Source of the DNA: Candidatus Falkowbacteria bacterium
GTDB lineage: Bacteria > Patescibacteriota > Patescibacteriia > UBA11705
Direction: 5' to 3'
NCBI GenBank assembly: GCA_003518055.1
Contig: DOZJ01000006.1
Coordinates: 136,912 to 200,911, forward strand
Length of the DNA stretch: 64,000 nucleotides
How positions within the stretch are numbered: the first letter of the stretch is position 1; the number at the start of each line of letters is the position of its first letter. Shown here piece by piece: positions 3,601-64,000 of this stretch. The notes beneath the pieces were generated by a model, which was not told where the DNA came from, made no database searches, and saw nothing but the letters and a program-made list of their open reading frames with translations. A program made the position numbers and the translations under genes.

Positions 3601-3652
3601 GGGTCGGGGGTAGGGTTTAGGGAACCATTGTGATGATTTTTGCCTAAAATAA
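3601..3652. repeat. Promoter-proximal repeat copy L (GGGTAGGGTTTAGGGA...TTGTGATGATTTTTGCCTAAAAT)
   Basis: About 50-nt near-identical copy of the sequence at 4033-4084. Each copy sits just upstream (minus sense) of a consensus promoter. Confidence 0.6.
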
Positions 3653-3692: not shown

Positions 3693-3962
3693 TCAGACTC
3701 GCCATTTGAGTCGATTGAATCTTGAGTGATTCGAGCGAAAGATAAAGAGTTCCCAGCTAAATACCAGCAGCGGTGGATTGATTAGCCAGATAGCTTTACT
3801 GCTGACGGCAAAGGCAATGACATCGATGACTCCGAGTAGAATTACGTTGGCCCAATAGAAGGTGAAAAAGGTGTTTTGGGTCCAGTGATAGGCGAGAGCC
3901 AGCTTCAACCAAACCACAAACAGAACTACAAGAAACAAATGCAGGCCAAGTAGAATGGTCAT
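3693..3962 (-). CDS. Small integral membrane protein A, with basic/aromatic C-terminal tail
   Basis: 89 aa, 2-3 predicted TM helices. RBS GGAGGAACC before the ATG. Consensus promoter and perfect terminator. Paralogous to the 5678..5932 product. Confidence 0.5.
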   Translation of the reverse strand: MTILLGLHLFLVVLFVVWLKLALAYHWTQNTFFTFYWANVILLGVIDVIAFAVSSKAIWLINPPLLVFSWELFIFRSNHSRFNRLKWRV

Positions 3963-4032: not shown

Positions 4033-4084
4033 GGTAGCGGGTAGGGTTTAAGGGAGAGTTGTGATGATTTTTGGCTAAAAATTT
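4033..4084. repeat. Promoter-proximal repeat copy R
   Basis: GGGTAGGGTTTAAGGGAGAGTTGTGATGATTTTTGGCTAAAAA, a near copy of 3601-3652. Confidence 0.6.
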
Positions 4085-4099
4085 GGTGTTTTATTTACT

Positions 4100-4133
4100 C
4101 CCGTAGTGGTCGGTCGCGACCGACCACTACGGG
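4100..4133. promoter_or_regulatory. Perfect 34-bp palindrome CCCGTAGTGGTCGGTCG|CGACCGACCACTACGGG
   Basis: Exact dyad symmetry and GC-rich. Immediately upstream of the dus promoter. No flanking T-run, so it is probably not a simple terminator and may be an operator. Confidence 0.45.
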
Positions 4134-4218: not shown

Positions 4219-4246
4219 TTACCCTTCGAGAACCTCAGGGTGACAA
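4219..4246. repeat. Hairpin repeat H1 (CCCTTCGAG-N-CTCAGGGTGACAA)
   Basis: Same about 28-nt imperfect-hairpin motif recurs at 4708-4737 (inside dus) and, reverse-complemented, at 49881-49910. Confidence 0.55.
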
Positions 4247-4274: not shown

Positions 4275-5243
4275 ATGAAAACTTTTTGGGACAAACTACC
4301 GCGGCCGTTTTTGGCCTTGGCGCCGATGGCGGGAATTTCAGATTCGGCTTTTAGACAGATGTGCTTGAAATACGGCGCTGATGTTGTTTATACTGAAATG
4401 ACGGCATTTGATGCGCTGCATTATGGCAGCGCAAAGACGCTTGAAATGTTGAAATTCAATAAACGCAAAGAGCGACCGATTGTTATTCAGCTTTTTGGTA
4501 AACGGCCGGAGACTGTTAAAAAAGCCGTGGAGATGGTTGAAACGGCCGGATTTGACGGGATTGATATTAATTTTGGCTGTCCGGCCAGAAAAGTGGTAGC
4601 GCATGGCGGCGGCATTACACTCCTGCGAGATTTGAATTTGGCGCGCGAGATGGTGCAAGCGGTCACAGAAGCGGCGACGGTTCCGGTGTCAGTTAAAACC
4701 AGAACGTCTATCCTTCGAGTGACTCAGGTTGACAAAAGGGTAACTGTGTTTGATTTTATTGATAAAATAAAAGATTTGCCGGTAAAAGCGCTCATGATTC
4801 ATGGGCGCAGTTATGAGGGTGGATTTTCTGCTCCGATTGATTTTGACGTGATTAAACAAGTAAAGGAAACATTTAACGGCGTGGTCATCGGCAATGGCGG
4901 CATCAATACGCCGGAGCAAGCGATGGAGATGTTGAATAAAACCGGTGTTGACGGTTTGGGTTTGGCGCGAGGTCTTTATGGTCGACCGTATTTGTTTCAG
5001 CAAGCCAAGGAATATTTAAATAAAGGAAAATACAAAGAAGTAACATTAAAACAAATAAAAAAAATTGCGGTTGAGCACACGGAGTTATTGGCGGAATTGA
5101 AGGGAGAGTCAGGGATGTTTGAAATTCGGAAACATTTGTTGTGGTATTTCCGAGGGTTTCCAAATGCAGCGGAATGGCGGCAAAAGTTGGTCCGGGTGGA
5201 AAGTGTGGATGAGGTGGAGGGAATATTAAAAACGATGGTGTAA
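4275..5243 (+). CDS. dus: tRNA-dihydrouridine synthase (Dus family)
   Basis: LAPMAGISD...QLFG...GFDGIDINFGCP...IHGRS motifs of FMN-dependent Dus enzymes. 322 aa. Contains in-frame hairpin-repeat copy H2. Confidence 0.8.
   Translation: MKTFWDKLPRPFLALAPMAGISDSAFRQMCLKYGADVVYTEMTAFDALHYGSAKTLEMLKFNKRKERPIVIQLFGKRPETVKKAVEMVETAGFDGIDINFGCPARKVVAHGGGITLLRDLNLAREMVQAVTEAATVPVSVKTRTSILRVTQVDKRVTVFDFIDKIKDLPVKALMIHGRSYEGGFSAPIDFDVIKQVKETFNGVVIGNGGINTPEQAMEMLNKTGVDGLGLARGLYGRPYLFQQAKEYLNKGKYKEVTLKQIKKIAVEHTELLAELKGESGMFEIRKHLLWYFRGFPNAAEWRQKLVRVESVDEVEGILKTMV
4708..4737. repeat. Hairpin repeat H2 inside the dus coding region
   Basis: ATCCTTCGAGTGACTCAGGTTGACAAAAG. Matches H1 and H3. Sits in frame (encodes ...SILRVTQVDKR...). 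Confidence 0.45.
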
Positions 5244-5352: not shown

Positions 5353-5490
5353 TACCCACCTACGCTCTTACTTCCACCTACGCATAACGCTTATGCCTTC
5401 GCTAAAGCTATGGCATACAGGTCGGTGGACAGGGCGTAGAGCTACGGCGCCTGCCTGCCGGGAGGCAGGGGCGCGGCGGAAGTAACGAGG
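5353..5490. repeat. GC-rich dispersed repeat R1 (CCCACCTACGC / GCTAAAGC / CGGCGGGCAGG family)
   Basis: Shares the CCCACCTACG, GCTAAAGC and CCTGCCGGGAGGCAGG/CGGCGGGCAGGC cores with copies at 9570-9690, 38322-38440 and 49880-50021. Here it is frameshifted and non-coding. Confidence 0.6.
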
Positions 5491-9030: not shown

Positions 9031-10245
9031 ATGAAAATCGGCATTGATGCCTCGCGGGCGAATAAGCCCATAAAGACCGGCGTGGAGTGGTATTCATACC
9101 ATATAATTCAAGAACTCAAAAAAATTGACAGCGACAATCAATATTTTTTGTATACCAACACGCCGCTTGATATGGGGTTGGAGAAGTGTCCGGGGAATTT
9201 CAAAGAGGTGTGGCTCAAATGGCCGCTTCGCTATATGTGGACTTTGATTCGGCTCAGCTGTGAAATAAAATTCGGGAAAACCAAACCGGATTTGTTGTTT
9301 GTGCCGGCTCATACGCTGCCGCTGGTTAATCCATCCAAATCGGTGGTAACCATTCATGACATCGGATATGAACGCTTTCCGGATTTGTACAAATGGCCGC
9401 AAAGATTTTATCACAAATGGAGCTCAAGATTTGTAAAAAAACACGCGACAAAAATTTTGACCGTGTCGGAATTTTCCAAAAAAGAAATAATGGAAGTGTA
9501 TGGCGTGCCGGAGGAAAAAATCGCGGTGGTTTATAATGGGTATGATAAAGATGTATATGGGTTAAGGGGGCGTGAGGGGGCTGAAGAGGGTGGGGTTACG
9601 AAATTACCCACCTACGCTGATGCTCCGGCGGGCAGGCAAAACATTACCCGCCTACGCATGGGCTACGGCGGGCAGGCAAAAAGTTACGAAAACAAGACTG
9701 CTGTAAATGGGCAGTATATGATGTTCGTCGGCCGGTTGGAGGCGAAGAAAAATATTGAGCGTCTGCTTGACGCGTTTGTGACTTTCAAGGCCAAAAATCC
9801 TGAGGATAAACACAAACTGGTGTTGGTTGGCAAGCCAAGGCCGGAGTTTCAGCAAAAGATGATGCGGCTCGCCCTTGAAAATAAAGATAATGATATTATT
9901 CATTTTGAATATTTGAAGGCGGCCGAGGTGGCGTCGTTGTTGCATCGGGCGGATTTGTTTGTGTTTCCGTCGTTGTATGAAGGTTTTGGCATTCCGGTGC
10001 TGGAAGCCATGGCCTGCGGCTGTCCGGTGATTTGCGCCAATACGACATCTTTGCCTGAAGTCGCGGGTGAAGCCGCGATTATGTTTGATCCCGAACGGGT
10101 GGATTTGATCGTAAAGGCGATGGAAACCGTGCTTTTTAATCCCACCGTTGCGGTGGCGTTGAAGGAAAAAGGTTTGGAGCGCGTCAAGGCGTTTTCATGG
10201 AATAAAGCAGCGAGGGAGATAAAGGAGATTATGGAAAAAATATGA
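9031..10245 (+). CDS. Glycosyltransferase family 4, carrying an in-frame repeat insertion
   Basis: C-terminal EGFGIPVLEAMACGCPVI...E GT-B retaining-GT motif. A low-complexity insert (GLRGREGAEEGGVTKLPTYADAPAGRQ...GYGGQAK) is encoded by repeat R2. Confidence 0.8.
   Translation: MKIGIDASRANKPIKTGVEWYSYHIIQELKKIDSDNQYFLYTNTPLDMGLEKCPGNFKEVWLKWPLRYMWTLIRLSCEIKFGKTKPDLLFVPAHTLPLVNPSKSVVTIHDIGYERFPDLYKWPQRFYHKWSSRFVKKHATKILTVSEFSKKEIMEVYGVPEEKIAVVYNGYDKDVYGLRGREGAEEGGVTKLPTYADAPAGRQNITRLRMGYGGQAKSYENKTAVNGQYMMFVGRLEAKKNIERLLDAFVTFKAKNPEDKHKLVLVGKPRPEFQQKMMRLALENKDNDIIHFEYLKAAEVASLLHRADLFVFPSLYEGFGIPVLEAMACGCPVICANTTSLPEVAGEAAIMFDPERVDLIVKAMETVLFNPTVAVALKEKGLERVKAFSWNKAAREIKEIMEKI
9570..9690. repeat. 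GC-rich dispersed repeat R2 (tandem half-units) in frame within the GT4 gene
   Basis: TTACCCACCTACGC...CCGGCGGGCAGGCAAAA occurs twice in tandem, preceded by a G-rich GGGGGCGTGAGGGGGCTGAAGAGGGTGGGG leader. Confidence 0.6.
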
Positions 10246-11476: not shown

Positions 11477-12553
11477 ATGGGACGTAAAATTATTTTAACC
11501 GGATTAATTTTAATGTTGTCAGTGACTCTCACCGGCTGTATTTCATTTGGGAAAAAAGAAACAGCGGCTGGCAGTGGTGTGGGCGCAGTTGCCACCGGCG
11601 ACAGAGGAGATACTTGGGTTGCGAAATATAAATTGATGACTCCCGGCGCGATTGAGGCCAATATCGGCGGTGTTAATGTCACGACGATCGAGATGGATCC
11701 GACTGATACTAACGCGATTTATATGGGTACGCGCGGTAATGGTTTGTATTATTCTTATAATGGCGGTGACGGGTGGGATCACGCGGATGTGTTGTCCAAA
11801 GTCGCGGCCGGACAGATCAATTCAATATCGATTGACGCCAAAGATAAATGCAGCGTGTACGCGGCGGTCACCAATAGAGTGGTTAAAACCAGTGACTGCA
11901 ATCGAACGTGGCAGCAGGTGTTTAACACGGCTAAAGCTGATGAGGCGGTAGTCGATGTGGTGGTGGATTGGTTTAATACTTCTATCGTTTACGCGGCGGC
12001 AAAAGACGGTTCAGTGTATCAGAGTGCTAATGCCGGCGCCAGCTGGGCTAAATTGGCGGATGTTGAGCAAGAAATCAAAGAATTGGAAATCAGTTCAAAA
12101 GACAGCCGCGTGTTATTTATGACAACTGTGGCGGCCGGATTGTACAAATCAACTGATGGCGGTAAAAGCTGGCTGAGTATGAATGAGCGGATGGAATCTT
12201 TGGGCGGCAAGTATCGCAATGGTTACGCGGTGGCAGTGTCGAAAAATAATCCGGGCAAAGTATTTTATCTGTCGCGTCTCGGGCTGCTTCAGAGTTTTGA
12301 TAACGGTGAAACTTGGTCAAAAATCGCATTATTAACCGGTGAAAACGAAGCGACGTTCAATGCTCTCGATGTTTCAGTCAAAGATGATAATTTGATCTTT
12401 TTGGTCAGCGGCAGTACACTTTATCGCACGGTGAATGGCGGTCAGACGTGGGAAACGAGGAAGCTTCCAAGCACGGCAATTTTAACTGATTTGGATGTTC
12501 ATCTGGCAAATGACAAGCTGTTGTTTGTCGGGTTCAGTGCGCCGCAGAAGTAG
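11477..12553 (+). CDS. Lipoprotein with BNR/Asp-box beta-propeller repeats
   Basis: Lipobox LTGC. Repeated S-x-D-x-G-x-(S/T)-W motifs (TDGGKSW, NGGQTW, DNGETW, NAGASW). Confidence 0.55.
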   Translation: MGRKIILTGLILMLSVTLTGCISFGKKETAAGSGVGAVATGDRGDTWVAKYKLMTPGAIEANIGGVNVTTIEMDPTDTNAIYMGTRGNGLYYSYNGGDGWDHADVLSKVAAGQINSISIDAKDKCSVYAAVTNRVVKTSDCNRTWQQVFNTAKADEAVVDVVVDWFNTSIVYAAAKDGSVYQSANAGASWAKLADVEQEIKELEISSKDSRVLFMTTVAAGLYKSTDGGKSWLSMNERMESLGGKYRNGYAVAVSKNNPGKVFYLSRLGLLQSFDNGETWSKIALLTGENEATFNALDVSVKDDNLIFLVSGSTLYRTVNGGQTWETRKLPSTAILTDLDVHLANDKLLFVGFSAPQK

Positions 12554-12555
12554 CG

Positions 12556-12592
12556 TTTAGCGTATAGGGTATAGCGTATAGAGTGAAATAAT
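12556..12592. repeat. AGCGTTTAGCGTATAGGGTATAG repeat copy
   Basis: Same motif forms the arms of a long imperfect palindrome at 34795-34915. A weaker copy lies at 59330-59390. Confidence 0.45.
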
Positions 12593-34794: not shown

Positions 34795-34915
34795 TTGTTA
34801 TTATAAGAGCGTTTAGCGTTTAGGGTATAGGGTATAGTGATTAGATACTTACGCTATATTCATTATATATACAGTTATCTTATTATAAGCGCTAACCGCT
34901 ATACGCTAAACGCTT
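34795..34915. repeat. Long imperfect palindrome built from AGCGTTTAGCG/TATAGGGTATAG repeat arms
   Basis: Left arm GAGCGTTTAGCGTTTAGGGTATAGGG. Right arm CGCTAACCGCTATACGCTAAACGCT, followed by TTTTTT. Confidence 0.5.
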
Positions 34916-34919
34916 TTTT

Positions 34920-36005
34920 ATGATATTCAAACTCAAGAAAAATATTACGGTGGCTGTGGGTATGAGCGGCGGTGTAGATTCGTCAGTCGCGGCGGCACTA
35001 TTGAAAAAACAAGGCTATAATGTCATTGGCGTATATTTTATTACTTCAGCCCAGACTACCAGCGGCAAAATTAGGGATAACATCTGCTGCTCGCTCGAAT
35101 CGATGATGGATGCGCGTAAAGTCGCTCAGCAGCTTGGGTGTAAATTTTATACTATTAATTTGCGGACCGTTTTTAAACAAAAAGTTTTTGATGATTTTAT
35201 TCATGAATATGAATCCGGTCGAACGCCCAATCCGTGTATTCATTGCAATAAATTCGTAAAATTTGGCGAGGCGTTGCAGAAGGTAAAGGCGATTGGGGCT
35301 GATTATTTGGCGACCGGCCATTATGCTCGGGTCAAAAAGTCGCGGGATGGAAAGTTTCATCTATACGAGGGCAAGGATAAAAAAAAGGATCAAACATATT
35401 TTTTGCATTCATTAACGCAAGAGCAGTTGGCGCATGTCATTTTCCCCTTGGCCAAACTGATCAAACCGCAAGTTAGAAAATTGGCGGCCAAGTTTAAGTT
35501 GCCGACGGCCAGTAAAGTTGAATCACAGGAAATTTGTTTTATTCCTGACGGTGATGTGGCCAAATTTTTACGCGAGTATATTGAATTCAAGCCGGGGGAT
35601 ATCATTGATGTTGAAACAAAAAATAAAATCGGCCGACACGATGGGCTGCAGCAGTATACGGTTGGGCAGAGAAAAGGTATCGGTCTGCCCGGTGGCCCGT
35701 GGTATGTCGCGAAATTGGATATAAAAAATAGTATCTTGTGGGTGACAACCGATCTCAATGTGATAAATAAAAGTTTCATGCGGCTCAAAGATATTCATTG
35801 GATTACCGGTGAACCGAAATTACCAACCAGAGTTACGGTAAAAATACGTTACAATTCAGAGCCAGTGGCCGTAAAAGTAAACCCAAAACAAAACGGTTTT
35901 TATCTTGTAGAATTCAAAAAACCGCAAAAAGCTATTGCCCCGGGTCAATCGGCCGTATTTATGAAAAAAAATGAGTGTCTGGGTGGAGGGATAATCGATG
36001 AATAG
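34920..36005 (+). CDS. mnmA: tRNA-specific 2-thiouridylase MnmA
   Basis: PP-loop SGGVDSS, catalytic Cys and a C-terminal beta-barrel. 361 aa. Confidence 0.85.
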   Translation: MIFKLKKNITVAVGMSGGVDSSVAAALLKKQGYNVIGVYFITSAQTTSGKIRDNICCSLESMMDARKVAQQLGCKFYTINLRTVFKQKVFDDFIHEYESGRTPNPCIHCNKFVKFGEALQKVKAIGADYLATGHYARVKKSRDGKFHLYEGKDKKKDQTYFLHSLTQEQLAHVIFPLAKLIKPQVRKLAAKFKLPTASKVESQEICFIPDGDVAKFLREYIEFKPGDIIDVETKNKIGRHDGLQQYTVGQRKGIGLPGGPWYVAKLDIKNSILWVTTDLNVINKSFMRLKDIHWITGEPKLPTRVTVKIRYNSEPVAVKVNPKQNGFYLVEFKKPQKAIAPGQSAVFMKKNECLGGGIIDE

Positions 36006-36509: not shown

Positions 36510-36587
36510 GAACGAAGAAAATCGTTCTTTTTTGTTTGAACTTTGAATGTGGTGGTGGTATGATTTTGTATCCCCAAAGGAAAACGG
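36508..36587. repeat. Direct repeat DR-a (terminator hairpin GAACGA..TCGTTC + T-run + RBS module)
   Basis: About 80% identical over about 78 nt to DR-b at 37093-37170. Confidence 0.5.
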
Positions 36588-36694
36588 TTTTTATCTCGTA
36601 GAATTCAAAAAATCGCAAAAAGCTATTGCCCCGGGTCAATCGGCCGTATTTATGAAAAAAACGAGTGTCTGGATGGAGGTATTATAAATGAATA
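36576..36694 (+). pseudogene. Duplicated 3' end of mnmA (about 120 bp, frameshifted fragment)
   Basis: More than 90% nucleotide identity to 35884-36003, with a 1-nt deletion in the A-run. Located about 570 bp downstream of the intact mnmA stop. Confidence 0.6.
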
Positions 36695-37092: not shown

Positions 37093-37170
37093 CAGAACGA
37101 TAAGATCGTTCTTTTTGTTTGACATTGATAAGTGGTCGTGGTATGGTTGTCTGTTCCCAAAGGAAGGGGG
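37093..37170. repeat. Direct repeat DR-b
   Basis: Second copy of the terminator-RBS module. Confidence 0.5.
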
Positions 37171-38218: not shown

Positions 38219-38321
38219 ATAAGACGTAATTAAGAGCTAAAAATGCTCTTTTTTCATTTGCAAAACTTAGTAGAATAAGATAGAATGTTTGTATTAACTA
38301 CAACTTGTCACATTGAGTTTG

Positions 38322-38440
38322 CCGAAGGGTACGACATGCTTCCCGCCTACGTTACACCCTATGCTAAAGCTTCGGGTGTCAAGAAAACTCCGGCGGGCAG
38401 GCGAGAGCCTTCCACCTTCACTCAAGTTTCGGTGGACAAG
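38322..38440. repeat. GC-rich dispersed repeat R3, in frame upstream of alaS
   Basis: ATGCTTCCCGCCTACGTT...GCTAAAGC...CCGGCGGGCAGGCGAGAGCC. Encodes MLPAYVTPYAKASGVKKTPAGRREPS, contiguous in frame with AlaRS. Confidence 0.6.
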
Positions 38441-38457
38441 CAGTATGACAAAAAGAA

Positions 38458-41254: not shown

Positions 41255-41404
41255 GATGCCTCCTTGTGGGTCGGTGATGTTGATAACTTAGCATTTTTGC
41301 GTTTTTTGTCAAGGTAGCATTAAGCGTGATTTGTTGGTAAAATATAGTTCACGGTTTAAAGTCGTAACGCGTAACTCGAGATCCGTAATTCGTTTGAATA
41401 AAGT

Positions 41405-41779
41405 ATGGCTTATGATTTTTATGATTTAGATACCTGGAAAGTTGCTCATAGCTTTGTGATGGATATATACGAGTTGTCAAAATGTTTACCTAATGATGAA
41501 CGTTTTGGTTTAATTAGTCAGATTCGGCGTGCAGCTGTTTCTATAACTTCTAATATCGCTGAAGGGCATTCTCGCTTTTATTTTAAAGATAAAGTAAGAT
41601 TTTATTATTATGCAAGGGCTTCTGCAGCGGAAGTGTTGAGCCAACTTTTTATTTTTCGGGATTTGGGCTATTTGAATGAAAGCGAAATGACTAAAATGCT
41701 AGAAAAATGTAATAGAGTTAGAATGTTAATAAATGGCATGATTAGGGCAATCGAAACAGAAAATCAGAATGAGGTTTAA
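41405..41779 (+). CDS. Four-helix-bundle protein (the TIGR02436 / 23S rRNA intervening-sequence protein family)
   Basis: LISQIRRAAVSITSNIAEGHSRF...ARASAAEV matches the family signature (L.SQ.RRAAVSIPSNIAEG...ARGS..E). Confidence 0.8.
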   Translation: MAYDFYDLDTWKVAHSFVMDIYELSKCLPNDERFGLISQIRRAAVSITSNIAEGHSRFYFKDKVRFYYYARASAAEVLSQLFIFRDLGYLNESEMTKMLEKCNRVRMLINGMIRAIETENQNEV

Positions 41780-49879: not shown

Positions 49880-50021
49880 TTGTCACCCTGAGGAACTCGA
49901 AGGGTGAGTCTTTAAACGCTTGTCTATGCTTCCCACCTACGTTAAAACTTCTGCCTTCGTTAAAACTCCGGCAGACAAGCCGGCGGGCAGGCGAGAGCCT
50001 CAGCATGACAAGTTTACTTAA
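49880..50021. repeat. GC-rich dispersed repeat R4 with intact 31-codon ORF (49926..50021)
   Basis: Contains ATGCTTCCCACCTACGTT...CCGGCGGGCAGGCGAGAGCC. Encodes MLPTYVKTSAFVKTPADKPAGRREPQHDKFT, homologous to the R3-encoded extension of AlaRS. Confidence 0.55.
49881..49910. repeat. Hairpin repeat H3 (reverse complement of H1/H2)
   Basis: GTCACCCTGAGGAACTCGAAGGGTGAG. Directly abuts repeat R4. Confidence 0.55.
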
Positions 50022-50026
50022 TTATT

Positions 50027-50740
50027 ATGCATGAACAGCCCACACAACAAAATATCAAGGAAGCGTTATTGAATTTGCCGTCGGTCAAAAAGGTTTTTGA
50101 GCAGCTGGGATATTTTGTCTCTTTGTATCATGAGGCGGAAGAAGGAAAGAAAAACGAGGTCTTGGGGCGGATGAAAAAGTTTTTGCCCCAATTTGATGTC
50201 TTGTTGGATAAAATGGCGGCGGCGGCACATTATTCGATTGATGATTTTGTTAATGATTTGATGGCGACGGATCGGCTTGAAGCTTTGAGACAAGCGTTGG
50301 CCGGCGCTGAAAATAAACGGGATTTTTCCGTCGGTGTCTTTAATATTGATTACAATCCGGCTGAGCATCGTTATGTTTTACATATGCCGCCATATCAGGG
50401 GCAAGATTTTCAGGCCGACTTTACAAGATCCATGTATTTATTGGCGGAGAAGATGGCCGCGGATGAAAAGGTTGAATTGGTTGAGGGCTATTCTTGGATT
50501 TTTAATATTCCTTTTGTCGGCGATTTGTTTAACAATGCCAGATTTGAGGATACAAGAAAAACGGAGCGTAACATGAATACGCGCGGCGAGTTTTCCGGTT
50601 CTCAGCGGTCAGCTTTATTATTCAACAAAAAATCACTCCGAGAGTATTTGCAAACAGGAGAAATGCCCATCACCACTGGACGGGTTTATTTGAGGGATGA
50701 TTTTTTGCGTGATTATTTAGAACCGACAAAAAAACAATAA
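50027..50740 (+). CDS. Hypothetical protein
   Basis: 237-aa ORF. No recognisable domain. Confidence 0.4.
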   Translation: MHEQPTQQNIKEALLNLPSVKKVFEQLGYFVSLYHEAEEGKKNEVLGRMKKFLPQFDVLLDKMAAAAHYSIDDFVNDLMATDRLEALRQALAGAENKRDFSVGVFNIDYNPAEHRYVLHMPPYQGQDFQADFTRSMYLLAEKMAADEKVELVEGYSWIFNIPFVGDLFNNARFEDTRKTERNMNTRGEFSGSQRSALLFNKKSLREYLQTGEMPITTGRVYLRDDFLRDYLEPTKKQ

Positions 50741-58615: not shown

Positions 58616-58803
58616 TTGACGAAATATTTATCTTTTGCTAAAATATAAATACAAATTAATTCCGCAGACTGCAAGTGTCGATAGACTTAAATATCTTGCA
58701 TAGGAACGAATAAGAGCTTACGGTCTTTGAGCCGTTAGTTTTTAGAAGATAAGTCTGCGGGGAACCGGAGATATTTTTTTACTAATTATTCATTTTTAAC
58801 AAT
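58616..58803 (+). promoter_or_regulatory. rplJ promoter (TTGACG-17-TAAAAT) and structured 5' leader (L10-leader-like autoregulatory element)
   Basis: About 150-nt untranslated leader enclosed by a long-range pairing CCGCAGAC (58662-58669) / GTCTGCGG (58753-58760), consistent with an L10(L12)4-binding leader. Confidence 0.45.
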
Positions 58804-59322
58804 ATGGCTAAAACTAAGCAGCAAAAAGAAGATTTTATTTCTTTGCTCAGAGACAAGCTGTCTGAAGCCAAAGGTGTTGTGGTCGTGAGTTACACTGGTT
58901 TAAATGTTCCTAATACCGAGGAACTTCGCAATAAGTGTAAAAACGAGCAAGTCAACTTCATGGCGGTCAAAAAGACCTTGCTAAAGAAGGTGTTGAGTGA
59001 GTTGAAACTTGATGACGTGGAGCTGGATTACTCGGGTAGTTTGGCCGTGGCCTTTGGTCGTGAGGATGAGATCGCTCCGGCAAAAATCTTGAATGATTTT
59101 GCTAAAAAACATGAAGAAATAGTGTTTAAGGGCGGAATTCTAGAATCAAAGATTATCGGGGTTGAAGGCGTAAAGGTATTGGCGGCAATTCCAAGTAAAC
59201 CTGAATTGTACGCAAAACTTGTCGGATCGTTGAATGCTCCGATCAGTGGATTTGTCAATGTGATGGCGGGAAACTTACGGGGTTTGGTGAACGTGCTTAA
59301 CGCAATTAAAAATAATAAATAA
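58804..59322 (+). CDS. rplJ: 50S ribosomal protein L10
   Basis: 172 aa, collinear with L10. Confidence 0.9.
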   Translation: MAKTKQQKEDFISLLRDKLSEAKGVVVVSYTGLNVPNTEELRNKCKNEQVNFMAVKKTLLKKVLSELKLDDVELDYSGSLAVAFGREDEIAPAKILNDFAKKHEEIVFKGGILESKIIGVEGVKVLAAIPSKPELYAKLVGSLNAPISGFVNVMAGNLRGLVNVLNAIKNNK

Positions 59323-62833: not shown

Positions 62834-64000
62834 AACGATTTTTATGAAAAAATATTTGATGGCGGTTTTTTTTATCGTTATGCTGGCGGGATGTGTGATG
62901 TGGGCTTTTTCCGCTCGGGCGCAAATTGAAGATGCAACTGAGCTCCGTGTTTATAGTCATGGCTTGGAGCTGCAACAGAAGCTGGAATTGTTCGCGGATG
63001 ATTTTCCCGGCTATTTGGATTTCGATTTGATTGATCTCGGAGGTGATGGGATTGATGAAGTTTTGCTTGGAATGGGATATCAAGCGAAACCCACGGTGCG
63101 TTTGCTTCGAAATGATGGCAGTGAGATAAATTCATGGCAGCCGTATGTGGCTGGTTATGAGGGGCGGGTGAATGTGGCTTCTTATGATTTTGATGGTGAT
63201 GGTCTGGAGGAAATTGTGACCTCTCCCGGTGAGGGCGGCGGACCTCAGATTCGGATCTTTGACGGTTATGGCCAACCGAAATTTTCTAATGGATTTTTTG
63301 TATATGATAAAGGTTATCGCGGCGGTGTAGAAATCGCCATCGGTGACGTTAACGGTGATGGCCAAGTGGAAATCGTATCCAGTCTTTATGCTGATGGAAA
63401 GAATATTATTAATTTTTATGATCATTCTGGGACCAAGGTGTTGAGTGATATTGTGATAGATGCTGTTGATGCATTCGAACCCATGAAAATCACAGTTTTG
63501 GATGTGGATTCTGATGGTCTGGATGATATTATTATGGGTTCAAGCGCAGGGATGCGGTCGACCGTTTTAGCCTATAATATTTTTGGTGAGAAAGTTTTGG
63601 AGTTTGATGCCTATGCTTCTGGTTTTAGAGGCGGGGTTGATGTGTCTGTGTCTTATTTCAACGGAGTCCCATATATTACCACCGCGGCCGGATTCAGCGG
63701 CGGACCTCACGTGAGATTTTTTGATGTTAATGGACAATCGAGAATTAATCCGACATTCTTTGTTTATGATAAAGACTTTCGGGGTGGTGTGAATGTGGCA
63801 TATGGCAACTTGATTGGAAATAACGAGGTAGTGGTTGTGCCGCAGACATTGCAGTTAGGCGGTGATTTGCCGGCTGGTTATAAAGTGATTAAGGTTGATT
63901 TATCAGAGCAAAAATTGTACGCCTATACTCGTGGCCGGTTGGAAAAATCGTTTTATATTTCTTCCGGCAAGTGGGGATATGATACGCCGATCGGAACATT
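62834..64000 (+). CDS. FG-GAP/VCBS-repeat beta-propeller fused to L,D-transpeptidase (YkuD) domain; 3' end truncated by the window
   Basis: Signal peptide. Repeated D-x-D/N-G-D-G-x-x-E/D-I motifs (DFDGDGLEEIV, DVNGDGQVEIV, DVDSDGLDDII). C-terminal ...KVDLSEQKLYAYTRGRLEKSFYISSGKWGYDTPIG is the start of a YkuD catalytic domain. Confidence 0.6.

Follow-up and report, generated by a model that had tools for sequence, protein, structure and literature searches.

How can a dispersed, GC-rich repeat reside inside a conserved protein-coding gene without disrupting it? This question is raised by a GT4 glycosyltransferase gene found in a stretch of 64,000 nucleotides (nt) of a Candidatus Falkowbacteria genome (Patescibacteria) from groundwater (contig DOZJ01000006.1), hereafter called the window. 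Its open reading frame (ORF) of 404 amino acids (aa), located at 9031..10245 on the + strand, encompasses the Pfam domains Glyco_transf_4 (residues 17-174) and Glycos_transf_1 (residues 225-381), and its product is 100% identical to a known Candidatus Falkowbacteria protein. An earlier analysis of the letters alone (the sequence-only reading) proposed that a repeat of approximately 120-140 nt occurs at four sites of the window, one of them, 9570-9690, inside this gene. Translation confirms that the ORF reads through 9570-9690 without a stop codon and with its frame unbroken. The proposed size of the element has to be revised: the repeated unit, termed here the P unit, is 30 nt long, and within 9570-9690 only 9607-9636 and 9647-9676 are repeat DNA. 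Our results indicate that the feature probably arose through insertion, in frame, of a 30-nt hairpin repeat that is dispersed and selfish.

The first P unit of the GT4 gene (9607..9636, + strand) reads CCCACC TACG CTGATGCTCC GGCGGG CAGG and encodes residues 193-202, PTYADAPAGR, in frame 0; its GC content is 0.73 and covariance model R1 matches it with 43 bits (E=1.8e-7). The second one (9647..9676, + strand), CCCGCC TACG CATGGGCTAC GGCGGG CAGG, encodes residues 206-216, TRLRMGYGGQA, in frame +1, scores 41.1 bits with the same model and folds as single-stranded DNA (ssDNA) into a 6-bp stem with a 2-bp inner stem. The best homolog of the GT4 protein (P0002, 75% identical) is encoded on contig L001 in a syntenic setting, MreB-x-GT4-HolB-BNR-RRF-GlyRS, and both sites are empty there. 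The empty-site sequence of L001, ...GGTGTTGCAAAATTA|CAAAATATTA|CAAAAGGTTACGAAAACAAG..., corresponds to the filled-site sequence ...GGGGTTACGAAATTA[30 nt]CAAAACATTA[30 nt]CAAAAAGTTACGAAAACAAG... of the window, and with both 30-mers removed 9587-9700 aligns to L001 without gaps over 49 nt (44/49 identity). Each insertion is therefore exactly 30 nt long. Both are situated between ATTA and CAAAA (ATTA^CAAAA, twice), with the boundary ambiguous by 1 nt, and comparison with L001 reveals no target duplication at either site. The linker between the motifs VVYNGYD and FVGRLE, 20-30 aa long in 113/120 homologs, reaches 59 aa in the GT4 protein of the window. Together with the empty sites of L001, this substantiates the view that the segment is a lineage-specific, frame-preserving insertion. 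An AlphaFold2 model of the protein (mean pLDDT 86, pTM 0.85) contains a single low-confidence stretch, residues 180-219 with pLDDT <50, which is the linker joining the two Rossmann halves; both inserts fall inside it.

Because units 1 and 2 are read in different frames, they represent a DNA repeat and a shared protein motif is excluded. A low-complexity motif selected at the protein level (PAGRQ or YGGQA linkers) would fit the fact that the segments are translated and lie within a linker. The same DNA, however, encodes unrelated peptides in two frames of GT4 and is used in three frames in other proteins, many copies are intergenic, and the arms covary as base pairs. Frame analysis thus refutes this candidate, which we regard as extremely improbable, and the preference of the sequence-only reading for repetition at the DNA level is upheld. 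An artefact of assembly or chimerism deserves consideration since the source is a metagenome-assembled genome, and a GC-rich island on an AT-rich background may point to a chimera. The identical 404-aa protein is, however, encoded on contigs of at least three independent groundwater assemblies or runs, which argues that the inserts are no artefact. They are moreover exactly 30 nt long and keep the frame, and the P unit also turns up in other organisms, both in complete genomes and in contigs of several hundred kb. The probability of an artefact is consequently close to nil.

The GT4 pair might also have originated from one insertion followed by local tandem duplication of 40 nt (unit plus 10-nt spacer). 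The 40-nt repeats 9603-9642 and 9643-9682 are indeed 83% identical, P arrays in Bacteroidota have short spacers and periods of 37-40 nt, and the GT4 linker is rich in short tandem repeats. L001, however, already possesses the tandem 10-mers ATTACAAAAT and ATTACAAAAG in the absence of a P unit, so that an origin by duplication requires two later precise excisions. The two units furthermore differ at 7/30 positions, whereas their flanks are nearly identical. We therefore consider duplication unlikely, and two insertions of the P unit remain our preferred explanation.

Unrelated hairpin repeats occupy the same GT4 linker in other lineages of the candidate phyla radiation (CPR), namely in proteins P0057 (L130), P0086 (L131) and P0091, and the site is therefore generally permissive. 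The linker repeats of L130 (10545-10665) and L131 (10535-10640) comprise GTCATTCCCGCGCAGG...GGGAATC, ATTCCGGA...TCCGGAATGAC and CCCCCTTTACTAAGGGGG. The window itself contains an extra in-frame linker segment of approximately 24 nt at 9563-9590, absent from L001, which is G-rich and resembles short tandem repeats (AGGGGGCGTGAGGGGGCTGAAGA). Conversely, the linker of L001 harbours a TTAC-rich segment of 48 nt that is missing from the window. With several kinds of indel present, the linker is evidently hypervariable.

The P unit is a module composed of a 6-nt arm, the tetranucleotide TAYG (or TTCG/TTCA), a 10-nt loop, a complementary 6-nt arm and the terminal CARG, with the consensus CCCGCC TACG CCAAGGCTTC GGCGGG CAGG. 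Its GC content (0.73-0.77) contrasts with 0.38 in the surrounding 2 kb. That the repeat occurs at four sites of the window is supported by motif counts far above chance. Motif YCCCRCCTACGY, with at most 1 mismatch, has 7 matches (0.93 expected), 6 of which coincide with the sites reported earlier, all on the + strand (5354, 5372, 9606, 9646, 38341 and 49931). Motif CCGGCGGGCAGGCRA has 5 matches (0.11 expected), on the + strand at 9625, 9665, 38390 and 49980 and on the - strand at 5447, and the core GCTAAAGC is confined to two units, 5392 and 38354. Six contiguous P units, all on the + strand, were detected by a simple pattern scan (5392, 9607, 9647, 38354, 38411 and 49950); loose matches in the shuffled-sequence control numbered 2.1. 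Model R1 revealed no additional diverged P units in the window, and the syntenic loci of relatives were free of matches to it.

Arms of the window units covary (CCCGCC/GGCGGG, TCTGCC/GGCAGA, TCCACC/GGTGGA, ACACCC/GGGTGT, TATGCC/GGCATA). The loop is conserved as C-Y-A-A-R-G-C-T-W-C although the search pattern left it open (T18 in 42/42, A14 in 39/42 and C17 in 40/42 units). In longer variants of 33-40 nt, CYAARG is swapped for a self-complementary mini-hairpin, for example CTCCTGCGGAG, TCCCTTCGGGA or CGGGAAGACCCG. From the loop conservation and the mini-hairpin variants follows a fold in which positions 1-6 pair with 21-26 as stem P1, followed inwards by a 3x3 internal loop (TAC/TWC) and by P2, an inner stem whose length varies. 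Across 41 distinct units 96% of cells are paired, as against 87% in shuffles. The inner pair 11-16, which was not used in unit selection, is CG in 34 units and UA in 5, with 5 double changes, and single-stranded P units fold into the 6-bp stem and a 2-bp inner stem closed by a tetraloop. UNCG tetraloops and a G-quadruplex were considered, as was a resemblance by eye to signal recognition particle RNA or 16S rRNA, and all were dropped as unsupported. The consensus contains zero stop codons in the three sense frames and one TAG in one antisense frame. Since a unit of 30 nt, or of 33 nt in some variants, adds whole codons, duplicates no target and brings no sense stop, sense insertion cannot break a reading frame, and behaviour reminiscent of Rickettsia palindromic elements (RPEs) is thereby explained.

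Further evidence of insertion comes from nesting. Three P units of the window are interrupted by a second unit in their loop: 38342..38401 holds 38354-38383, 49932..49991 holds 49950-49979 and 5373..5433 holds 5392-5421. The last of these belongs to an intergenic nest downstream of dus (5353..5490, + strand; R1 model 38.7 bits) with an ambiguous parse of the outer layer. It consists of the inner contiguous unit 5392-5421 (TATGCC...GGCATA CAGG), its P-like host (5373-5391 plus 5422-5433, + strand), a partial CCCACCTACGC (5356-5366) and a GC hairpin (5447-5472).

The sites at 38.3 and 49.9 kb, taken previously for simple copies of the repeat, are composites of P units nested within a doublet of another repeat, termed here H. 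The hairpin TTGTCACCCTGAGGNNCTCGAAGGGT has three matches in the window (0.00 expected), at 4221 (-), at 49880 (+) and, with 3 mismatches, at 4710 (-). The companion hairpins noticed in the sequence-only reading are thus real; they constitute an independent, widespread family which in the window hosts P insertions. A metagenome scan with GTCANNCTGAGGNNCTCGAAGNNTGA retrieved at least 120 H loci, with 137 units among the matches listed. Watson-Crick complementarity of the NN arms holds in 121 of these units (CC/GG 49, TG/CA 45, CA/TG 11, etc.), and the usual form among the same matches is an inverted doublet of approximately 90 nt, gggtGTCACCCTGAGGCACTCGAAGGGTGA-spacer-ATGCTTCGAGTGCCTCAGCATGACaccc. 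Beyond the window, neither family accompanies the other: there is no P unit in 806 kb of H loci and no H unit in approximately 1 Mb of P loci.

Composite C (38305..38451, + strand; R1 model 38.6 and 38.2 bits) is located upstream of the alaS start (ATG 38459). Its degenerate H(+) spans 38305-38333, and its H'(-) half is broken into three pieces (38336-38341, 38402-38410 and 38441-38451). The P units are an outer one (38342-38353 plus 38384-38401), an inner one (38354-38383) and a further one (38411-38440). A terminator (38232-38250) and a promoter-like site (38258-38286) precede it, and the Pfam domain of AlaRS begins at residue 63 of the extended ORF. Composite D (49880..50011, + strand; R1 model 41.6 bits) lies between mutL (end 49779) and an ORF starting at 50027. 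Its H(+) (49880-49908) is followed by a spacer and by an H'(-) half (49926-49931 plus 49992-50011) with an outer P unit (49932-49949 plus 49980-49991) and an inner P unit (49950-49979). Both composites are inverted H doublets whose second half, ATGCTT^CGAGAGCCT^CAG(C/T)ATGACAA, is interrupted by P units, and more than 40 uninterrupted H' halves in metagenomes represent empty sites for the GCTT^CGAG insertion. The outer P unit (loop TTAAAACTCC) is common to C and D and sits at the same position. Later insertions differ: C carries 38354 after TT and 38411 at GCCT^CAG, and D carries 49950 after TTAAAACT. The composite was therefore copied and P insertions then continued. An inner unit at the same loop position is shared by the window, Doudnabacteria L102 and Acidobacteria L051, and the inner-in-outer arrangement of composite D recurs in L102. 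Target duplications are absent from the nested sites.

The two other H matches are associated with dus. A single H unit (4221..4246, - strand) matches the pattern exactly and precedes the start codon of dus (4275) by 29 nt. Inside dus, an H-like segment of 26 nt (4710..4735, - strand; 23/26 positions match the H pattern) is translated in frame as ILRVTQVDK and had been interpreted as another in-frame insertion. The Dus ortholog in L004 (65% identity) has a 1-aa gap across 4710-4735, with unrelated DNA of almost equal length, and the insertion was rejected as there is no net length change.

Distribution of the P unit extends far beyond the window. One genome per GTDB species was scanned with the pattern CCTGCCCGCC-N10-40-CGTAGGYGGG, resulting in at least 119 loci. 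Spacing among the matches listed peaks sharply at 10 nt (31 matches), with 8 matches at 11 nt and 4 at 40 nt, the latter being nested forms. The listed matches cover at least 8 phyla, so the same 30-mer is not CPR-specific. Patescibacterial hosts among them include Kerfeld-, Falkow-, Harrison-, Buchanan-, Doudna-, Peri-, Peregrini- and Saccharibacteria. Further hosts are Acidobacteriota, Bacteroidota (including Ignavibacteria), Planctomycetota, Kiritimatiellae, Omnitrophota, Desulfobacterota and, within Pseudomonadota, Alpha-, Beta- and Gammaproteobacteria. GC content of the listed host loci ranges from 0.33 to 0.68, and both complete genomes and contigs of several hundred kb are included; the lone "archaeon" match, on a 1.5-kb contig, is doubtful. 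A scan of viral contigs gave 5 matches, none with 10-nt or 40-nt spacing, which are therefore chance matches and give no sign of spread by phages.

Within long ORFs lie 21/64 units, 19 in sense and 2 in antisense orientation. Pfam-confirmed hosts of 30-nt units are DnaX (L027), PheT (L045), HsdS (L054), LigA (L095) and a P-type ATPase (L085), where the unit is antisense and encodes the peptide PARQSLGVGG. Units of 33 nt were found in ValRS (L060) and in PolA (L072), in the latter case in the linker that joins the 5'-3' exonuclease domain to the 3'-5' one. Every sense frame is represented, with peptides such as PAYAK.., PPTPRLRRAG and RLRQGFGGQA. Intergenic units show no consistent direction relative to flanking genes (approximately 8:8). 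Short tandem repeats are weakly enriched beside P units, 30% vs 18% at random positions under lax Tandem Repeats Finder settings. Two Bacteroidota loci, L037 (5189-5480) and L099 (4513-4689), carry P-unit arrays embedded in tandem repeats of 7-8 nt (CATAACCT; ATTCGCT/GTTCACT) with periods of 37-58 nt. In L025, two identical P units are 3 kb apart, each 47 nt upstream of one of two paralogous large genes. Their interpretation as transposon ends was rejected, as the units lie in duplicated upstream regions of the paralogs.

The same observations can be read as signs of a function, the P unit being a structured nucleic-acid motif under selection, for example a protein-binding site or an mRNA-stabilising or regulatory hairpin of 5' untranslated regions (UTRs), with ORF copies incidental. 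Sequence and two-helix structure are conserved in at least 8 phyla, with a constant internal loop and variable P2; the single H unit and both composites, C and D, are placed between promoter-like sequence and start codons, and the L025 pair precedes paralogous genes. A functional motif, on the other hand, is hard to reconcile with copies in housekeeping ORFs that are unrelated to each other, where every sense frame and in one case the antisense strand is used, with units nested in one another, or with syntenic loci of relatives that lack units. Intergenic orientation is balanced, no gene family recurs among the 94 neighbouring ORFs surveyed, and Rfam gave no match in the window or the 11 loci searched. 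Selection for a function thus seems improbable as the general explanation, and a selfish element remains the preferred one.

Such an element would be tiny and non-autonomous, copied precisely into new sites, most often 5' of C, and would often land in loops of other small hairpin repeats, giving rise to nests. Sense insertion into an ORF would add approximately ten residues and would be kept where the protein tolerates a loop. Copies would persist wherever they are harmless, i.e. in intergenic DNA, 5' UTRs, loops of hairpin repeats and disordered protein linkers, and the encoded peptide itself would presumably be neutral. Mobility would be provided in trans via an ssDNA intermediate, with an enzyme acting at the replication fork and recognising the folded hairpin in the manner of HUH transposases, including REP-associated tyrosine transposases (RAYTs; REP, repetitive extragenic palindromic sequence), or of the IS200/IS605 family. 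The conserved fold, the lack of target duplication, possible TTAC^ sites (both GT4 sites can be read in this way given the 1-nt boundary ambiguity) and the strand bias are the grounds for such an ssDNA/HUH-type mechanism. All P units of the window are on the G-rich strand, and intergenic P units favour the locally G-rich strand 30:13 (p=0.014), the template of lagging-strand synthesis. The unconserved 5' target, the single hairpin per unit and the lack of TnpA or RAYT in the ORFs scanned speak against the mechanism, which we regard as the likeliest candidate, although with low confidence.

Search for a mobilising gene was negative in the neighbourhoods surveyed. The 94 ORFs within 1.2 kb of P units (approximately 60 loci) fall into 71 Pfam families, none of them with more than two members, and no transposase, Y1 or HUH family is among the families listed for them or among the 55 ORFs of the window. 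Rfam at gathering thresholds gave no match to P or H units in the window or in 11 P/H loci, and a search of the 38.3 kb composite in E-value mode produced a single match, which was noise. Literature searched by nucleotide string, encoded peptide and topic yielded no account of P or H elements.

Several points weigh against the selfish-element interpretation. The nearest relative is only 75% identical, which makes precise loss there inseparable from gain here. The base after the unit is C in 50/62 P units, yet the target is weakly defined (roughly T^C) and the 5' flanks of the 62 units are devoid of a conserved tetranucleotide. The strand bias was judged from GC skew over 8-kb loci, a crude proxy of replication direction. 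Individual 30-mers are only modestly more stable than their shuffles (z +1.0 to -2.6), and there is some circularity in the pairing statistics of P1, as stem pairing was itself a criterion of unit selection. REP-like elements seldom keep a near-identical sequence across phyla, which could mean a conserved function; likewise, three composites occupy putative 5' UTRs close to the start codons that follow, and this would suit a regulatory role too. Finally, neither a mobilising enzyme nor excision products nor polymorphism within populations came to light, and mobility is deduced from comparison only.

With these points in mind, we tentatively propose the P unit as a hitherto undescribed mobile element of 30 nt with a pan-bacterial range, a possibility that we hold to be real if not the likelier outcome. 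Its conservation in at least 8 phyla would stem from exploitation of conserved trans machinery, either a shared HUH-type enzyme or a core replication/repair activity, and its stop-free length of a multiple of three would let it supply essential proteins quite generally, among them aminoacyl-tRNA synthetases, polymerases and ligase, with new surface loops. If mobile, the unit ranks among the smallest elements proposed, pushes down the known lower size limit of mobile DNA and points to a conserved mobilising activity. It would also explain the "PAGRQ / LRRAG / GGQA" low-complexity segments and the spurious small ORFs in metagenome annotation. Its consensus and covariance model can be used as a masking marker, and exact 30-nt indels are clean characters with which recent insertions can be traced in lineages not yet cultivated.

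GC content of the window is approximately 42%, GC skew is strongly positive throughout, and the + strand carries nearly all genes. The 55 ORFs annotated by Pfam form an ordinary housekeeping set, including DnaJ, Dus, MreB, NYN, GT4, HolB, RRF, GlyRS, MurJ, LepA, RecJ, RNase H, PilM, MnmA, AlaRS, MutS, MutL, ribosomal proteins and RpoA. No tRNA genes were found in the 64 kb, and the sole Rfam match of the window is the ribosomal protein L10 leader (RF00557, 56 bits) at 58644-58788, upstream of the ORF at 58804. Other repeats are also present. A perfect palindrome of 34 nt, CCCGTAGTGGTCGGTCGCGACCGACCACTACGGG (4100-4133), upstream of dus, contains GTAG/CTAC within its stem; it is REP-like and unrelated to P or H. 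A direct repeat of 48 nt (83% identity; GGT.G.GGGTAGGGTTTA.GG...TTGTGATGATTTTTG.CTAAAA) at 3602-3649 and 4033-4080 brackets a small reverse-strand ORF (3693-3962), and GC content of the 2-4 kb stretch is unusually high (0.53). Heptamer-like tandem repeats (AGCGTTT AGCGTAT AGGGTAT AGCGTAT) occupy two intergenic sites, 12552-12591 and 34802-34920, in mutually inverted orientation. Comparable short tandem repeats adjoin 23S_rRNA_IVP genes in the window (41350-41400) and in L004. The stand-alone 23S_rRNA_IVP gene of the window (41405-41779), coding for an Avd-like four-helix bundle, overlaps the mutS start by 11 nt. As the same family is found upstream of dus in the relative L004, it appears to move between lineages; short repeats of other kinds, and neither P nor H units, lie beside it in the window and in L004. 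Sequence comparison suggests gene-fragment duplications in the 36-37.2 kb region, where the mnmA 3' end and downstream sequence are duplicated approximately 690 nt and 583 nt further on (35877-36004 vs 36568-36694, 36529-36582 vs 37112-37165; 94%, 85% and 78% identity). A direct repeat of 94 nt (63235-63328 and 63697-63790, 462 nt apart, 70% identity) is probably an internal repeat of the protein-coding region at the window end.

Comparison of the P unit with known repeat systems reveals both similarities and differences. Mobile GC clusters of yeast mitochondria and the related "byp" elements are GC-rich hairpins of approximately 30-50 nt which spread in an AT-rich genome and land in coding regions; both are organellar, and byps are bypassed by the ribosome rather than translated. 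P units differ in being in frame and stop-free, with no hint of bypassing. The small dispersed repeats (SDRs) of Nostoc/Anabaena, attributed to Elhai et al. 2008, are reportedly hairpins of 21-27 nt, apparently mobile, without target duplication, prone to nesting and with tandem heptamers nearby. They are said to be confined to heterocystous cyanobacteria and to have sequences of their own, with the consensus sequences SDR1-8 in Nostocaceae. By this account, the P unit seems similar in nesting, lack of target duplication and the tandem-repeat setting of L037 and L099, and differs in its 30-nt size and pan-phylum distribution; none of the 119 listed P-unit matches is cyanobacterial.

Elements of the IS200/IS605 family insert 3' of a tetra- or pentanucleotide without duplication, carry subterminal hairpins, are biased to the lagging template and depend on TnpA, an HUH enzyme acting in cis or trans. 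For the P unit, the lack of duplication, a possible TTAC^ reading of both GT4 sites and the bias to the G-rich strand would be compatible with such elements; its one hairpin instead of two and its unconserved 5' flank speak against membership, and TnpA was found neither among the neighbouring-ORF families listed nor among the window ORFs. Miniature inverted repeat transposable elements (MITEs) have terminal inverted repeats and target-site duplications and are usually longer than 50 bp. A unit of 30 nt without duplication is therefore not a MITE, whereas H doublets (approximately 90 nt, inverted ends) are MITE-like in architecture. H is likewise similar to REPINs, REP doublets which form a hairpin and have been proposed as the mobilisable unit (Bertels & Rainey 2011, PMC3116915): it forms inverted doublets of approximately 90 nt with a spacer, and composites C and D are such doublets. 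The P unit differs from REPINs in being a single hairpin, with no doublet.

The analogy with RPEs, drawn in the sequence-only reading, is apt as regards behaviour, since P units too are palindromic in-frame insertions at a permissive site of an ORF, in the manner of RPEs and intragenic REPs. RPE-1, attributed to Ogata et al. 2000, is approximately 100-150 bp long and reportedly restricted to Rickettsia. The P unit, which is modular, self-nesting and present in many phyla, is set apart from it by length and host. Closer in size are the intragenic GTAG/CGTC REPs, including Rickettsia RPE-4 and RPE-6, palindromes of 20-40 bp with stems of 6-9 bp (5-13 bp by definition) and complementary stem variants (Di Nocera et al. 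2013, PMC3733652). Between genes or within ORFs, the latter often of replication/repair genes, they are encountered singly, as dimers or in clusters, and inside ORFs they add 10-30 aa (PMC3733652). Similarity to the P unit includes 30-nt size, 6-bp stem, covarying arms and the coexistence of intergenic and in-ORF copies. In GTAG/CGTC REPs one end of the stem-loop bears the unpaired tag, GTAG or CGTC, whereas the end tag of the P unit is CARG and the complement of GTAG (CTAC) lies inside the loop by the 5' arm. The reverse strand accordingly reads CCTG-CCCGCC-GAAGCCTTGGC-GTAG-GCGGG, with GTAG within the loop, and a canonical GTAG hairpin arises only at junctions of adjacent P units (GGCGGG CAGG CCCGCC TAC). 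The supplements of PMC3733652 contain neither P-unit strings nor the corresponding peptides. REP families are, moreover, largely lineage-specific and often RAYT-linked, whereas the P unit is near-constant across phyla and no RAYT is among the neighbouring-ORF families listed. By length, host and position of the tag, the P unit thus belongs to neither the RPE nor the GTAG/CGTC REP families. Small palindromes residing in frame within genes were already known from Rickettsia RPEs and some REPs, all of them lineage-specific; what is unexpected in the P unit is its 30-nt modularity, its self-nesting and its conservation across phyla.

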